A stretch of 64,000 nt of DNA. Source: a virus. The translations under genes were made by a program, and so were the position numbers. Location of the stretch: positions 45,769-109,768 of IMG/VR virus record IMGVR_UViG_3300027869_000006; one strand, given 5' to 3'. Under the pieces are notes generated by a model, which was given only the letters and a program-made list of their open reading frames with translations, did no database searches and was not told the DNA's origin. Of this stretch, positions 10,322 through 40,013 are shown in pieces; position 1 is the stretch's first letter; each line of letters begins with the position of its first letter.

Positions 10322-11562
10322 GTCAAATACCCCATGAATAAATTCAGGGGCTTGCAGCTAGGCGCGTCCTGCTACAGTAGGCACTTTGACGGGTGCCCGA
10401 GAGATATTGATGGCAGCATTGATGTCAGCGTTCATCGACATGCCGCACTTGACACAACAGAAGGAGACTTGACTCTTGCGGTTCTCTTTCGCACAGTGCC
10501 CACAAGCAGAGCACGTTCGAGACGTATTGCGGGGGTCTACCGTGTGTAACGACACACCAGCAAGAGCAGCCTTATACGAGAGGAATTGACGAAGTTAAGC
10601 AAAGGCCCAGGATGTAAAGCGATTGCGCTGAGAACGTCTAACCGTGCTATCGGTGCGTTTCCGAATGTGCCTGAGTTCTTCAATCGCTATTCCTTGTTTG
10701 TTGGCCTTTGCTTTCGCAATGATCCGTTTGGAGATCACATGATTGGTATTGCGCTTGAACCTGGCTTCTTTGCCAGAGAGCTTCTTGAGATGCCGTTTGG
10801 CGGATTTCGTGCCGCGCTTTTGCAAACGTTGACGCAAGGCGTGCATACGTGTACGCACCTTCTCAACCTGCTCACCGCTAAAGGTGTCCCCGTCACTGTC
10901 GGTCGCCAGGTTGACGATGCCAAGATCGATGCCAAGCGTCTCAGTCACTTCATCGGGCGTAGGTTCTGGAACATCAAGCGTGACAGCCAGGTAGAAGGTA
11001 CCATCACGCCAAATCAAATCGGCCTGTCCTTTGATCTTGTCCATACGGGCTTGCTGATAGCCACCAATGCGGAAGGGCACAAGTACCCGTCCAGTGGTTG
11101 TCAAGAGGGAAACGGTAGTGAGTCCTTTGAAGGACATCACGCGGGGATCATAGACAATGGCACCTCTGGCATCAAACGTTGGCATGATACTCTTGTCGCG
11201 CTTGTAGGCTTCGGTCGCTTTGCTAATACAGCGGATGGCGAGTTGAGCAGGCAGATTGTACCACTTGCGCAAATAGCCATAGACCAGCTTTTGCAGTGCA
11301 AACTTATTGGCACTCTTCTCCAGAAAGGCGATTTGCGCCACATAGTTTGCCCCTGCATTGAAGCAATCCATCGTCAACAACAAGGCTTTGTATTGTTCTT
11401 CAGTTGGGGCAAGCTTCAAGAGCATCGTTTGTTTCATAGACATATTGTAGCATCATTGATGAAAGTTGTCAATAGGCGAGATGATACCCAACCCATCTTG
11501 CCCATAAGGAAGGGCTTGCTTACCCCATGCTTAAAAGACAGGGACTTCCGCAAGCCCGATTG
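10322..11562 (-). mobile_element. IS200/IS605-family (IS1341-type, tnpB-only) insertion sequence
   Basis: Minus-strand left end TCAC|CAATCGGGCTTGCGGAAGTCCCTGTCTTTTAAGCATGGGGTAAGCAAGCCC; right end GCAAGCCCCTGAATTTATTCATGGGGTATTTGAC; related subterminal hairpins; no tnpA. Confidence 0.8.
10358..11443 (-). pseudogene. tnpB: TnpB RNA-guided nuclease with in-frame premature stop
   Basis: LGIDLG (RuvC-I), IAIEEL (RuvC-II), then SWAFA-TAA(10595-10597)-LRQFLSYKA...CSACG...CVKCG...ADINAAINI in the same frame. Confidence 0.88.
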
Positions 11563-34621: not shown

Positions 34622-35218
34622 ATGTACTTCATCTATGCACTTGCTGATCCTCGCACTGGCATCATCTGGTATATCGGTATTACGACGGACATGCATCGAC
34701 GCTTTATGCAGCATGTGGGGTGTCAAGGGAATAATCTTGAGAAGAATACATGGATACGAGCATTGAGAAGTGAAACCTTGCTGCCTGCATTGAAGATTCT
34801 TGAGAGTGTCCCGACCAATCAACAAGCCAGGGAACGAGAAGACTATTGGATACAATGGTACCTGGGGGAAGGGATGCCTTTGACAAATATTCTGCAAGAA
34901 AAAGGCGAGCAGCAATCTTCCATGAAATCTTCCCCAAAGACTCCTAAAAAGCCAATCATGAAGTCGGTAGAAGAAGAGGATAGAAAGAAACCGGAACTCA
35001 AAGAGACGCAGCGACGGCTTCACTACTGGCGCACGAGGCGATTTTTTTCGATGGATGACCTGGCAGAACGTTCGGGAGTAGACAAGGGTACTATCTACAA
35101 GATTGAAACGAAGGGTGGTAGACCCAGATATGAGACGGCTGAGAAACTGGCGAAGGCATTGGGTATCACACTTGACGAATTGTACGGCGACGAGGGTCAG
35201 GAAACGAACAGCGCCTAA
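34622..35218 (+). CDS. GIY-YIG nuclease fused to an XRE HTH
   Basis: FIYALADP...WYIGIT...RFMQH...REDYWI...LTN; C-terminal LHYWR..R.FSMDDLAERSGV.KGTIYKIE...KLAKALGI. Confidence 0.8.
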   Translation: MYFIYALADPRTGIIWYIGITTDMHRRFMQHVGCQGNNLEKNTWIRALRSETLLPALKILESVPTNQQAREREDYWIQWYLGEGMPLTNILQEKGEQQSSMKSSPKTPKKPIMKSVEEEDRKKPELKETQRRLHYWRTRRFFSMDDLAERSGVDKGTIYKIETKGGRPRYETAEKLAKALGITLDELYGDEGQETNSA

Positions 35219-35577: not shown

Positions 35578-35616
35578 GTGTTTCTCTGCTCCCTTGCCAC
35601 ATGGCTTGAATTGTCT

Positions 35617-36057
35617 CTAGGTGTCCTGTTGTAATTCGGTAAGTATCCCTTTGAGGAGTTCCAGTGCGAGTTTTCCTGCCTCTTCTTTGCTGAAGGTGAA
35701 GCGTGCGACGGCAGTAAACAGATCAAGGCTGGCATCCTCGACCAACGGGACACACGTCGGGAGTTCCGTGAGATCGATCAGTTTCCCAATCTCGCTCGCT
35801 GCCTCTTCAGCGATGAGGATATCCAGGCGTTTGCCTTGCTTCTTCAGCAGTGTGAGGTGATCGGGATGTAGAGCGATTTCCTGTGCCCAGAAGCCCCAAC
35901 CCTTCAGAAAGAGACCAGAGAGACGTTGTACCTGCCGATACATACTGGTTTCGTCTTCTTTGTTGCGAAGGGTGAGGAGCAGCTCGTCTCCCGGCTCAAT
36001 CGTGTATTTGTGTAAACACATCGCGACGAGTTGTGTATACGTGAGTTTTTGTCTCAT
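35617..36057 (-). CDS. Hypothetical protein
   Basis: GAGG RBS. Confidence 0.55.
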   Translation of the reverse strand: MRQKLTYTQLVAMCLHKYTIEPGDELLLTLRNKEDETSMYRQVQRLSGLFLKGWGFWAQEIALHPDHLTLLKKQGKRLDILIAEEAASEIGKLIDLTELPTCVPLVEDASLDLFTAVARFTFSKEEAGKLALELLKGILTELQQDT

Positions 36058-36062
36058 TTACC

Positions 36063-36584
36063 TCAGATGGTTCCTTTCTTGTTGTTGTGTTGTTGAGAGG
36101 CAGTTCGTGCCTCCATCGGCGTCGCGTAGACCGTGAACTTGACCTCGTGCTCCGCGAGCAAGTTGAGGAGTGCCCATCGTTCTTCTTTGTGCCAGGTCGG
36201 ACCCTGTTCCTGGATGTCCCACAGTGCCCGGAAGAGTGCAAGCTTTTCCTGGCCCGTTCCCCTGGAAGAGAAGAGTGCCTCCTCGACCAATGGTTGAGTA
36301 AAGCGAAGCCAGTCTCGTGGCAGTGGGGAATCATACATCTGGATATCCCACAGTGCCCGGAAGATGTCTACCCTGCCGTTCATGGTCAACTTGGAGAAGA
36401 ACAGTGCCTTTTCCAAGAGTGGTTTCATCCAATTGAGCCAATCCGTACGCGTGCAATCACGCACGCGCCGAGGTGTCCCGTCTTCCCCCAAAAAATACCA
36501 GCGTAATTGTTCCTGTGGAAATGCAACGGTAATCCCTGATTCCTTGAAGTATCCACTCCTCGGTTGCTCAATTTTCGTAATCAT
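36063..36584 (-). CDS. Hypothetical protein with internal repeat; N-terminus duplicated beyond tnpB
   Basis: DWL...PL.E.ALF...FRALWDIQ occurs twice; N-terminus homologous to 37855-37949. Confidence 0.7.
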   Translation of the reverse strand: MITKIEQPRSGYFKESGITVAFPQEQLRWYFLGEDGTPRRVRDCTRTDWLNWMKPLLEKALFFSKLTMNGRVDIFRALWDIQMYDSPLPRDWLRFTQPLVEEALFSSRGTGQEKLALFRALWDIQEQGPTWHKEERWALLNLLAEHEVKFTVYATPMEARTASQQHNNKKGTI

Positions 36585-36644
36585 CGTATCCTTCCCCCTT
36601 GTGATACACTAGCAGTCCCTTTGGCTTGTCAGGCCGCTTTACTC

Positions 36645-36673
36645 TTGACATGAACTCCACTATATGGTACAAT
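36645..36673 (+). promoter_or_regulatory. Sigma70-type promoter for leaderless tnpB
   Basis: TTGACA-17 nt-TACAAT, ATG 6 nt downstream. Confidence 0.75.
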
Positions 36674-36679
36674 AGTTCT

Positions 36680-37831
36680 ATGAGAACGTATGAATACCGT
36701 CTCTATCCGAATAAAAAGCAGTACCACTTGCTCATGCAGTGTTTGATGGAGTCTCGCATGCTCTATAACGAGATGTTGAAGACAATCAAGGCACAGTATG
36801 AACAGGATGGTACATTTCCAAGTAAATATGATTTGGATAAACTGTTTCAAGGATGCAGTGGGGAGCATGTCCCTGCTAGTACGGTACAAATGCTTTCTGA
36901 CCGACTCTCCAAGTCCCTTAAACGCTTTCTTAAAGCCCGTGAGTTGGGTATTCCTGATGTAGGCTTTCCGCGATTCAAGAAGCCGAATCGGTGGCATTCC
37001 ATTCAATTGCGACAATACGGTGATAAACAAAGACATCGTAATGTTTGGCTGGATGAAGAGAAGAAACGCTTGTGGGTTCCTAAGAAATTGGGAACCTCTC
37101 TGAAAATTAAGTTGCACCGTAAGATCGAGGGGACCCCCAAAACTGTCCATCTCGTACTTCGTGCAGATGGGCACTGGTATGCCCTGATCGTCTGTGAAAC
37201 AGAGCCACAAACAGACCGTCTTCCAAGCACGTGCGAGCATCCTGCTATTGGTATCGACGTGGGCTTGAAGTCTTTCTTGACTGATAGTGAAGGTCATACC
37301 ATAGCAAATCCGCGCTATTATCGCAAAAGTCAATGCACGCTTCGACGCAAACAACGCACGATGTGCCGACGTAAGAAGGGTTCTCACCGCCGCCGCAAAG
37401 CTGCAAAGAGTACGGCACAAACCCATCTGAAGATTAAACGACAACGCCGTGACCATCATTTCAAGGTTGCCAAACAGTATGCAGAGTCCTACGGGCATAT
37501 TGCCGTGGAAGACCTTCAGATTTTCACTATGGTGCAAAACCATACTCTTGCCAAGAGCATTATGGATGCTGGCTGGGGACAATTCCTTCGTATTCTTGAG
37601 GCCAAGGCTGTAAGTGCCGGACATCAAGTCATTCGAGTGAACCCCCGCTATACCACACAGGCATGCAGTAATTGTGGGGAACTTGTTCACAAGTCCCTCA
37701 GTGTTCGTACGCATATCTGTACCTCCTGTGGCTATATTGCTGACCGTGATGTCAATGCTGCACAAAACATTTTACAACGGGCCGGGCACGGCCTTCAGGG
37801 ACGGTCTCCGTTGGGAGTCCGGTTGAACTGA
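36680..37831 (+). CDS. tnpB: Intact TnpB RNA-guided endonuclease
   Basis: MRTYEYRLYP HTH, GFPRFK, GIDVG, AVEDL, CSNCG/CTSCG zinc finger, DRDVNAAQNI; catalytic D-E-D intact. Confidence 0.92.
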   Translation: MRTYEYRLYPNKKQYHLLMQCLMESRMLYNEMLKTIKAQYEQDGTFPSKYDLDKLFQGCSGEHVPASTVQMLSDRLSKSLKRFLKARELGIPDVGFPRFKKPNRWHSIQLRQYGDKQRHRNVWLDEEKKRLWVPKKLGTSLKIKLHRKIEGTPKTVHLVLRADGHWYALIVCETEPQTDRLPSTCEHPAIGIDVGLKSFLTDSEGHTIANPRYYRKSQCTLRRKQRTMCRRKKGSHRRRKAAKSTAQTHLKIKRQRRDHHFKVAKQYAESYGHIAVEDLQIFTMVQNHTLAKSIMDAGWGQFLRILEAKAVSAGHQVIRVNPRYTTQACSNCGELVHKSLSVRTHICTSCGYIADRDVNAAQNILQRAGHGLQGRSPLGVRLN

Positions 37832-37875
37832 GAAGCCCGTAAGGGAGTTGCCACCAGCGTAACCGCTCCTGTGGG
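37740..37875 (+). ncRNA. Putative TnpB omegaRNA (scaffold to about 37854, guide from 37855)
   Basis: Typical 3' overlap with tnpB: ...GTTGAACTGAGAAGCCCGTAAGGGAGTTGCCAC|CAGCGTAACCGCTCCTGTGG; 5' boundary approximate. Confidence 0.6.
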
Positions 37876-37949
37876 AAGGCGACCGTGCTCCCGCCGTCCT
37901 TGAAATAGCCTGTTCGTGGTTGTTCGATGTCTCGTGATTCTGCTGCCAT
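37855..37949 (-). pseudogene. Orphan 5' fragment of the gene at 36063-36584
   Basis: MAAESRDIEQPRTGYFKDGGSTVAFPQERLRW versus MITKIEQPRSGYFKESGITVAFPQEQLRW; both have an AAGGGGGAAG RBS. Confidence 0.75.
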
Positions 37950-37986
37950 TGCTCTTCCCCCTTTTGGCAATGCTGACTGACAGAAG

Positions 37987-38493
37987 TTAGTGGTCCATGT
38001 GCTCCTCTACGGGTCCTCCGATTTCTGTAGCAAACACCACCCGCCGCTTTTCCGTTTGTTCCGGGTCAATCTCCTCCTCATAGACCTCCCAGGCGTCTAA
38101 TTCCACGACCTCGACCTCCCCAGTATCACAGAGAAGAGAGAGAGATGCTGGTGTTGGGATAGGTACCACCACGGTCTCGGTCTCTGCCAGGTCGCCGCGC
38201 TGCTGGTGTTCCTGCCAATCGGTGATAGGATTGTCGGTCGTTGGCCCACCGGGGCGAAACCAGAGACGCTCGGCCATGCGCAGCGGGTCACTCGGCGCAA
38301 GCTCCTGTCTGCGTGGATAGAGGAACATCTCCCGGTGGATCGCTCGGTAGTAGTCGCCCGGGTTCTTGACGTAGTCCGGGAGTCCAAGTGTCTCTTGTAT
38401 GGCACGCCAATGTGCGCGGCCTGATGCACTCTTCCAGTAGAGCGCACGGGTCTCTTCCGGCAACATGGCCGGATCAAGTGCATATCGTTGCAT
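37987..38493 (-). CDS. Hypothetical protein
   Basis: TAATG coupling to rusA. Confidence 0.6.
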   Translation of the reverse strand: MQRYALDPAMLPEETRALYWKSASGRAHWRAIQETLGLPDYVKNPGDYYRAIHREMFLYPRRQELAPSDPLRMAERLWFRPGGPTTDNPITDWQEHQQRGDLAETETVVVPIPTPASLSLLCDTGEVEVVELDAWEVYEEEIDPEQTEKRRVVFATEIGGPVEEHMDH

Positions 38494-38996
38494 TACCTGT
38501 TGCCCGCAAGCGCGGGTTTCCCCTTTCTTCGTGAGTGTGGGCGAGCTACATCTGGGGGGAGAGGACGTAGCTCTAGGATGTAGAGAGTGATTTCAATGCG
38601 CGGATTGGCCTTGTCGATACGACGGTCAACATGCGCAGTTTCAAATTTATTATCATTGAATCCAAGAACCGTTGCGATCAAGTCAAGGGTCGCCTTCAGC
38701 CGATTGAGCACATCGCTTCTTCTTGAAGGCACATACACCCAGGCATCACATCCAAGCACGGAGGCCCGCGCCCAATCAGGATGGTATATCCCTTGACTGA
38801 GGAGAATGTAGCCAGCATCGTGTTGCCAATCGCGGAGCTTTCGGCTGCTAATGAAGCGGGTCCCCAGTGAGCCATCCTTTTTCCTGAAGGAGATAGGAGT
38901 GTACATCTCATTCTCGGAAGGCGGCAATGGGAGCTCGAAGGTTGCCTCCTTCAAACGAAATCGTGTGAGAGGTGCGTTTGGAAGAATGAGCTTCAT
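38493..38996 (-). CDS. rusA: RusA-like Holliday junction resolvase
   Basis: LPLPPSENEMY...RRSDVLNRLKATLD...NDNKF...NPRIEI; start reassigned to ATG 38996. Confidence 0.75.
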   Translation of the reverse strand: MKLILPNAPLTRFRLKEATFELPLPPSENEMYTPISFRKKDGSLGTRFISSRKLRDWQHDAGYILLSQGIYHPDWARASVLGCDAWVYVPSRRSDVLNRLKATLDLIATVLGFNDNKFETAHVDRRIDKANPRIEITLYILELRPLPPDVARPHSRRKGKPALAGNR

Positions 38997-40013
38997 TGGT
39001 TGAACTATGATGCGTACTCCCTTCTTTCCCTCGCCCGTCTCCGTTGTCGTGCCCGTACTCGCATGATGATCCAGGTGATCCACAGGAGGATCAGGATGAT
39101 CCAACTTGACGCATACACGTACAGATAGCCAACATCGTCGTGCCATTTCATCGGACCGTCTCCTCCTCTCCCCTATCCATTGTTCCAGTATAGGCAGCCT
39201 GATAAATCTTGTGAGCAGCCGAGAGCGAAGGGGGCACAGAGAGGCCAAGATCATGGGAAAACAGCAGGCGATACTCGTCATACCACGCGAGAAAGTCCTC
39301 CGCTTCTTGCAGCTCTTCACTCACCGCTTGCCGCTCGCTTGCTTGCTGTGATGAAGCAGCAGAGGAGATAGGTATGCGCTTGCATGTGCTTTTGACAAGG
39401 GGAACGAGCCAATCGAACAGGAGCAGGAAGACAATACCCAGACCCAGGAGGAAGCCAAACATGAAGAGTATGAGAAGTCCACAGAGCGTCAGGAGCAGGC
39501 GCTTTGTCCTGTGAAGAGAAGATGAAACGCGGCGCGACCGACGTTCAAACGGTGTTCCATGGAAAACGTTCCACATTACCCCTCCCCCTCCCCTCATCGC
39601 TTTCTCGCTCACACCTCCTGCTCTGATGGCATACCCGTCGCGTTCTCGTGTAAATACGAACTCAACCATACCAGAAGAGCAACAGTGGAGTTACCCAAAT
39701 TATAGAGAATACATCGTAAAATTACAAGCCTTTTTTCTGACAATTCTTTCATAATTTATACGGTGGAGTTCATATTGCTACTTCTCTCATATCACGTGCG
39801 TATTTACAGTAGAGTTCGTCTTGTACAACATGGACTCACTTCAATTACGAAAGCAATAGAGCAGAGATGGCATGACGGGCCAGGCATCAGCAAAAAGGTA
39901 CAAAGGTTACTTATGTCACAAAAGGGTATGTTACACTGAAAAGAGAACAAAAGAAGTGTAACATATAGATGCTATTTTAGCATCTATTGTGGTAGAATAG
40001 GAAAGGAGTACTA

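Follow-up and report, generated by a model that had tools for sequence, protein, structure and literature searches.

The subject of this analysis is a cassette consisting of a tnpB gene and its predicted omegaRNA, located inside an operon of a soil phage on a stretch of 64,000 nucleotides (the window, by which we mean this whole stretch) that corresponds to bases 45769-109768 of IMG/VR record IMGVR_UViG_3300027869_000006, itself linear, 109.8 kb in length and with an estimated completeness of ~85%. The phage genes around the locus run on the minus strand, and tnpB is placed opposite this operon, on the plus strand. An earlier note on this stretch had described an intact TnpB inserted in a phage gene, with the gene restored by a recoded copy of its 5' end and the guide aimed at the original allele; the anatomy given there is borne out by the analysis, the proposed transposon-associated motif (TAM) only in part, and the notions of recoding and of domestication are not sustained. 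The features that make up the locus, including the junction found where the left end of an insertion sequence (IS) would be expected, are in order of position:

36063-36584, minus strand: the resident complete gene, an ORFan of 173 amino acids, recognised as an open reading frame (ORF) with a AAGGGGGAAG ribosome-binding site; its codons 1-29 are enclosed by the TAM-like motif and the cassette.
36494-36498, plus strand: AATAC, a TAM-like motif adjoining the resident protospacer-like site on its 5' side and matching the family motif at positions -3 to -1 only.
36499-36518, plus strand: the resident copy of the target, found by a search of the record and identical to the guide at 17/20 bases.
36585-36640, no strand assigned: the ribosome-binding-site region of the resident gene (to ~36600) and then ~40 further bases, a junction in place of the IS left end, where only the CTTCCCCCTT(G/T)TG segment resembles the region upstream of the orphan head.
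36645-36673, plus strand: the tnpB promoter, TTGACA-17-TACAAT with an extended TG, 11/12 consensus matches.
36680-37831, plus strand: tnpB, 383 amino acids, with the RuvC D-E-D triad and the zinc ribbon intact by Pfam and alignments.
37729-37854, plus strand: the predicted omegaRNA scaffold (3' part), with a trimmed terminal hairpin at 37836-37845 and its right end at 37854, placed by a 22-copy consensus and 21 host boundaries.
37855-37874, plus strand: the guide template, which is the first 20 bases of the right flank, CAGCGTAACCGCTCCTGTGG, placed by the right-end boundary.
37855-37965, minus strand: the displaced orphan head, recognised by homology to the resident gene, with a ribosome-binding site followed by codons 1-32 from the ATG at 37949 (coding part 37855-37949).

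The nuclease is intact, as had been claimed for it. The Pfam domains HTH_OrfB_IS605, OrfB_IS605 and Cas12f1-like_TNB follow one another in this order (E 4.6e-9, 3.7e-21 and 1.4e-24 respectively), the protein aligns end to end with ISDra2 TnpB (8exa/8h1j; E 2e-47), and the GIDVG, AVEDL and DRDVN motifs are present together with a CxxC...CxxC zinc ribbon. D193, E277 and D357, as well as both CxxC pairs, are invariant columns in an alignment of 14 sequences comprising the window TnpB and 13 relatives, and the three catalytic residues fall in line with the motifs of ISDra2 type. At columns otherwise invariant the window protein carries 7 private changes, the corresponding numbers being 2-6 in most intact host copies and 16 in the copy L027. 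The related host copies, 21 in all, come from Chloroflexota/Ktedonobacteraceae genomes and have 66-77% amino acid identity to the window TnpB, and the tnpB promoter of the window stands at the same position as the CTCTTGACA promoter of these copies.

Several other observations concern tnpB and its promoter. Antisense to the gene there is an open frame of 378 codons (36629-37765, minus strand), and more than 300 codons are open in 14 of 19 relatives. This frame was rejected as a phage-specific gene, since codon-order shuffles reproduce it (mean 284 codons) and its openness is an effect of codon usage, the TTA, CTA and TCA codons being avoided in tnpB; a product from such an antisense frame has been claimed for a cyanophage tnpB (preprint 10.64898/2026.02.14.705889). 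A weak promoter-like site on the minus strand (36659-36686, TTCTCA-16-TATAGT, 9/12 matches, within chance expectation) diverges from the tnpB promoter toward the resident gene and could drive the restored gene from inside the cassette. Finally, the host flank directly 5' of one IS copy (L006:2860-3000) resembles the tnpB promoter and leader of the window at 29/36 bases (CTTGACATG..TATGGTAC..GTTCT), which may reflect a nested insertion into another family copy, or a common promoter type.

The right end of the element is fixed by the 21 host copies, which have a common terminal motif, GAGTTGTCAC in 18 of them and variants differing by 1-2 bases in the other 3 (GCCAC in L023), and the flanks of which are unrelated from the first base past it. 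In the window this end reads GAGTTGCCAC, with its last base at 37854, exactly where the end of the omegaRNA had been put. The consensus structure derived from 22 copies for the last ~125 bases before 37854 comprises 24 pairs, 8 of them with compensatory changes, and its helices are kept in the window. A search of Rfam with 36400-38100, both at the gathering threshold and at E values up to 1, gave neither an omegaRNA family nor a group I intron, and on the latter ground we rejected an IStron, that is, a group I intron fused to an IS605/IS607 element. The shortening of the right-end hairpin was correctly noticed, CCC-GTAA-GGG (37836-37845) having a stem of only 3 bp as against 7-9 bp in the host copies.

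The left end is altered too. The left side of the host copies consists, in order, of the (T)YTAC motif, a spacer of ~25-30 bases, a conserved hairpin (GCCCC..GGGG-ATGAA), a variable spacer and the promoter. The homology of the window to these copies begins only at CTCTTGACA, the -35 box, at ~36641, and neither the host hairpin GCCCCTGGCTTCAGCCATGGGGATGAA nor the motif could be matched in 36585-36640. Likewise, no Y1 transposase gene tnpA (PF01797) was found in the 109.8-kb record, complete to ~85% by estimate, compared with 12-16 matches in each of the host-lineage genomes, such that the reported lack of a left-end hairpin and of tnpA stands. Because the left-end hairpin is gone, the right-end hairpin is trimmed and the record holds no tnpA, the cassette is not a TnpA-mobilised IS, and its mobilisation as such by TnpA is, to judge from its ends, no longer possible.

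The same phage carries other tnpB genes. L002 (G000:C1:4777-8859; tnpB at 1492-2613), outside the window, is a second one, with 40% amino acid identity; it has a TTTAC target motif, a full left-end hairpin, a right-end hairpin of 8-9 bp ending GTAGTCAC and a TTGACA promoter of its own, lies ~30 bases past a gene end, is devoid of a flank duplication and looks like an ordinary, still mobilisable IS. The third and more distant tnpB-like gene (L003 1462-2547; window ~10358-11443, minus strand), situated between repeat-rich tail-fibre-like and amidase-like genes, is broken by an in-frame TAA into 282 and 65 amino acids; it is bounded by alike hairpins, AAGYCCCTG..CATGGGGTA, at both ends and again has no flank duplication. 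Since the ends of L002 and L003 are canonical, the phage does acquire ordinary IS copies, and compared with these the present cassette has lost precisely what TnpA needs.

The nearest phage-borne relative of the cassette (L033:2888-4290, in IMGVR_UViG_3300025910_000137; 60% amino acid identity) lacks both a left-end hairpin and a promoter and has a right-end hairpin of 5 bp. It is oriented like its neighbours and seems to split a small ORF, with 38 codons before and 44 after it, leaving no replacement copy; no relatives of its phage were found in the viral contigs searched.

What distinguishes the locus is the duplicated gene head. As described in the earlier note, the end of the element is adjoined directly by the head of a gene deprived of its body, and a diverged copy of this head, with the same ribosome-binding site, begins the complete gene on the other side of tnpB. 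The orphan head and resident codons 1-29 have 72% amino acid identity over 29 residues (E 7e-10; 1e-12 in tblastn), the local DNA alignment of the two heads scores 40 compared with a shuffle maximum of 24, the duplication screen gives z = 14, and AAGGGGGAAG, which is CTTCCCCCTT on the plus strand, precedes the ATG in both copies. The homology stops at the right end, as had been stated, apart from 2 extra common bases, AC being the last two letters of the right end (..CAC) and of the resident site (..TAC) alike; on the other side, a continuation of the similarity past the ribosome-binding site, as far as the end of the upstream gene, did not reach significance (6/200 shuffles). Past codon 32 the orphan frame continues into the omegaRNA antisense, giving an ORF of 65-72 amino acids that ends at 37752. 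When 38 TnpB loci were tested for flank duplication, no other case was found in the 21 host loci, 15 other viral TnpB loci, L002 and L003.

The way in which the two heads differ bears on their origin. Over 25 aligned codons there are 22 differences, distributed 2/4/16 over codon positions 1/2/3 (chi-square p = 4e-4), with a non-synonymous divergence (dN) of 0.12 and a saturated synonymous divergence (dS). Because the differences sit mainly at third codon positions, the heads evolved mostly as coding sequence during their separation; by this pattern they are two old coding alleles or paralogs that were brought together, and not a duplicate decaying in place. The term "recoded" goes beyond the data: the changes are not focused on the target (identity 85% there as against 71%) and look like the ordinary divergence of two coding alleles. 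The saturated dS with a dN of 0.12 would suit old tandem paralogs as well as alleles, the IS having hit the upstream copy and a deletion having then taken what was left of this paralog along with the left end of the IS, such that the orphan would be the remnant of a paralog; in a single genome the picture would be identical. Against this, the deletion would have to run from inside the IS, between hairpin and -35 box, up to a point shortly before the next ribosome-binding site without leaving a remnant in the ~40 bases, and the record contains no copy of the 173-amino-acid gene besides the orphan head, so that we consider such an origin improbable.

A metagenome assembly from one sample, which is what the record represents, could also in principle join two strain variants into a chimera. 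The whole of 35600-38500 is, however, contained in a single 61.5-kb piece of a Logan contig, with 0 differences and even depth, obtained from the only public DNA run with this stretch, a run which is possibly the window's own source and whose contigs only reproduce the record; moreover the junctions on either side of tnpB are unique sequence. Since this contig gives the entire stretch without a difference, an assembly artefact at the locus is unlikely, and a chimera is the least credible of the explanations considered here. Among the public runs listed as carrying the stretch there was this one DNA run and no RNA run.

The predicted guide is templated by the displaced head. With up to 3 mismatches the guide 20-mer occurs at only 2 sites in the 109.8-kb record, namely itself and 36499-36518, and the search of the record confirmed the mismatches reported between the guide and the resident copy at positions 9, 10 and 12. 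ISDra2 TnpB no longer cleaves a target with a double mismatch anywhere in positions 1-12 (PMC10097598). Given these data and the 3 mismatches within the TAM-proximal 12 bases, it is plausible that the resident copy is immune to cutting by its own TnpB. One alternative is that the protein binds this mismatched site, or another one, without cutting and thereby tunes expression in the manner of TldR. The guide is identical to the resident gene at 17/20 positions, and TldR is a known case of phage TnpB relatives by which a competing copy of a gene is repressed (PMC10705468). TldR is nuclease-dead, though, whereas here the RuvC D-E-D triad is intact, and the mismatches fall in the region needed for R-loop formation; an RNA-guided regulator is therefore very unlikely. 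For the same reason, the RuvC catalytic residues not having been lost, the window TnpB was rejected as a TldR itself.

The TAM is the chief weakness of the proposal that the cassette homes on, or excludes, rival alleles of its gene. The logo drawn for the family from 20 host copies counts T 12, Y 20, T 19, A 18, C 18, that is (T)YTAC, and AATAC, the motif nominated in the earlier note, fits it at 3/5 positions: the TAC core agrees with the family, and the A at -4, where C or T occurs in 20/20 hosts, departs from it, as does position -5. The core lies at the homology breakpoint, with a probability by chance of ~1 in 64, and its presence there supports an original insertion of TnpA type at the breakpoint. 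On the minus strand YTAC would give TAA or TAG right after Trp29, so that a functional Trp-Tyr allele must have RTAC, and the window TnpB would thus either tolerate a purine at -4 or cut weakly. In this context it is relevant that SisTnpB7 is not strict about positions -5 and -4 of its TAM, and that weak TAMs still allow recombination and sharpen the discrimination of mismatches (PMC11043419).

Other points also weigh against such a role. The target 20-mer, at 85% identity compared with 71% over the 25 aligned codons, is less diverged than the rest of the head, which gives no sign of selection for escape, and selection is not required to account for the mismatches. In a maximum-likelihood tree the window TnpB nests within the host IS clade and is not sister to L033, the only other phage copy found in that clade (60% identity), and such a grouping among host copies is no evidence for a phage-adapted TnpB lineage. 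Nor were relatives of the gene encountered. For the 173-amino-acid gene no uninterrupted allele was found in IMG/VR contigs and a set of 5.8 billion proteins, and there was no match in Pfam, PHROG or the ESM-Atlas. A full HMMER search of 1.84 billion representative proteins recovered only the protein itself, the orphan ORF and 3 weak matches, all of which were judged spurious and rejected as relatives, 2 of them being placed by Pfam among Kelch/BNR-type propeller proteins. A six-frame search of 5 host-lineage genomes and 169 genomes of their class gave no relative, and a codon-degenerate 30-base pattern of the empty site was absent from the viral and metagenome contigs. With a single sequence and no relatives, the activity of the cassette at the present day can only be inferred.

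These same observations would be expected if the locus were the fossil of a one-off accident, in which the insertion of an IS was followed by one illegitimate recombination, the partner being a co-infecting relative, or else by a deletion, and the gene was thereby restored and the left end removed, leaving a TnpB and a guide without current target or role that will decay. The databases searched hold no naive allele, the TAM is non-canonical, there is no target-focused recoding, the layout is missing from the 15 other viral TnpB loci, and the position of the protein among host copies in the tree is as expected of a separate capture. What speaks against a fossil is that tnpB, the promoter and the omegaRNA are all intact, the gene being open in the window in contrast to the premature stops in 5/22 host copies, and that both TnpA substrates were lost while the RNA-guided parts were spared. 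We accordingly regard a fossil as possible, and still on the unlikely side.

The explanation that we prefer, at about an even chance, is a transposase-independent TnpB-omegaRNA cassette, derived from a tnpB-only IS200/IS605 element of a host and homing on, or excluding, rival alleles. The intact TnpB, the promoter, the conserved omegaRNA, the exact right end and the unique duplication count in its favour; transcription, cleavage, the TAM used and homing itself are what we infer from them. In the simplest history, an IS from a Ktedonobacteria-like host would have inserted at ..TAC|CAGCG, on the 3' side of the TAC and at codon 32/33 of an allele of the orphan type. Subsequently, one illegitimate crossover would have joined the region upstream of the ribosome-binding site of a diverged allele to the IS at a point between its hairpin and its promoter, thereby replacing the left end by the head of the diverged allele, with its ribosome-binding site and codons 1-29. 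The product would be a gene made whole again, an element without its left end, and an original head surviving only as a guide template.

As for the mechanism, TnpB would be expressed from its own promoter and the omegaRNA would carry a guide of 16-20 nucleotides copied from the displaced head. During a mixed infection the complex would cut relatives with an uninterrupted allele of the orphan type, the target being expected to read ..RTAC joined directly to CAGCGTAACCGC; repair off the cassette-bearing genome would then copy the cassette in, or the rival genome would simply be lost. The resident copy would escape by virtue of its 3 mismatches in the TAM-proximal 12 bases. With both TnpA substrates gone, the unit could increase only by the RNA-guided cutting of orphan-type alleles followed by copying, or by destroying rivals. 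The TnpB may have been domesticated, as the earlier note had it, but the data suit a selfish homing cassette no less well.

The neighbours of the cassette in the operon are as follows:

35617-36057, minus strand: an ORFan of 146 amino acids, downstream neighbour of the 173-amino-acid gene.
37987-38493, minus strand: the upstream phage gene, an ORFan of 168 amino acids with no relatives in the collections searched, which forms the right homology arm.
38493-39005, minus strand: a RusA-like resolvase, operon neighbour.

Further along, on the strand opposite to its neighbours, 34622-35218 (plus) encodes a protein of 198 amino acids whose N-terminal part is a GIY-YIG nuclease domain and whose C-terminal part is a Cro/C1-type helix-turn-helix; it may be a homing endonuclease of the free-standing kind, or a regulator that arose from a nuclease.

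In protein family, domain order and intact RuvC site the cassette resembles the IS200/IS605 elements of ISDra2 type, in which TnpB is accompanied by an omegaRNA at the right end (Karvelis 2021, PMC8612924; Nakagawa 2023, PMC10097598; Mears 2025, PMC11870625). In contrast to these it lacks a left end as well as tnpA, its right-end hairpin is trimmed, and it is no longer a transposon; it brings along a replacement gene head, by which the target gene stays functional; and self and target would be told apart by substitutions rather than by whether the insertion is there. In plasmids, an IS has been shown to spread through TnpB and independently of TnpA (non-restorative homing; PMC11870625), and the same spread has been proposed for co-infecting phages (PMC13565253).

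A similar arrangement is found in the mobile open reading frames (mORFs) of fungal mitochondria (Allomyces macrogynus atp6; Glomus atp6, atp9, cox2 and nad3; PMC3630166), where likewise a nuclease gene has on one side an inserted, diverged terminus by which the ORF is completed and on the other the native terminus that was displaced. Between these two termini the nucleotide identity is 63-81% and the differences are mostly synonymous (PMC3630166), and the heads in the window also diverge mostly at synonymous sites. The enzymes of the mORFs, of the LAGLIDADG or GIY-YIG type, are protein-guided, and it is the 3' end of the gene that is replaced, whereas the cassette has an RNA-guided nuclease and replaces the 5' end, and the displaced terminus itself would template the targeting RNA. 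Comparable, too, are SegF, SegG and MobE of the T-even phages (intronless homing and localized marker exclusion; PMC13565253), nucleases again encoded between phage genes and with a home site protected by substitutions; by analogy, the gene that the window TnpB would cut is the neighbouring one in a co-infecting relative. The difference is that its specificity would reside in an RNA for which a preserved relic of the target is the template, and that the element descends from an IS.

TldR (PMC10705468; PMC13418256) is also a phage-borne TnpB relative without transposon ends and with a guide aimed at another copy of a phage-supplied gene. It has lost its catalytic residues and represses host promoters, whereas the triad of the window cassette is intact and its presumed target is the allele of a rival phage. 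In the literature searched we found no description of a TnpB layout in which a displaced gene head serves as guide.

TnpB is known to keep its own transposon in place. If the proposed explanation is true, the locus shows how an IS turns into a free-standing, RNA-guided element of homing or competition, and would constitute an RNA-guided counterpart of the mORFs and of the Seg and Mob nucleases, as well as a plausible intermediate between a selfish IS and a programmable inter-virus weapon. More generally, and more tentatively still, since we place this somewhat below even, phages might harbour a class of TnpA-independent RNA-guided homing cassettes, each combining TnpB, an omegaRNA and a replacement gene terminus with the displaced native terminus as guide template, able to reside inside needed genes without harm and to exclude or convert rival alleles. 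In the natural design a relic of the target would hold the guide, with self-immunity depending on a few mismatches beside a possibly weak TAM, and such an element would join three literatures hitherto separate, those on TnpB homing, on phage intronless homing and on mitochondrial mORFs.

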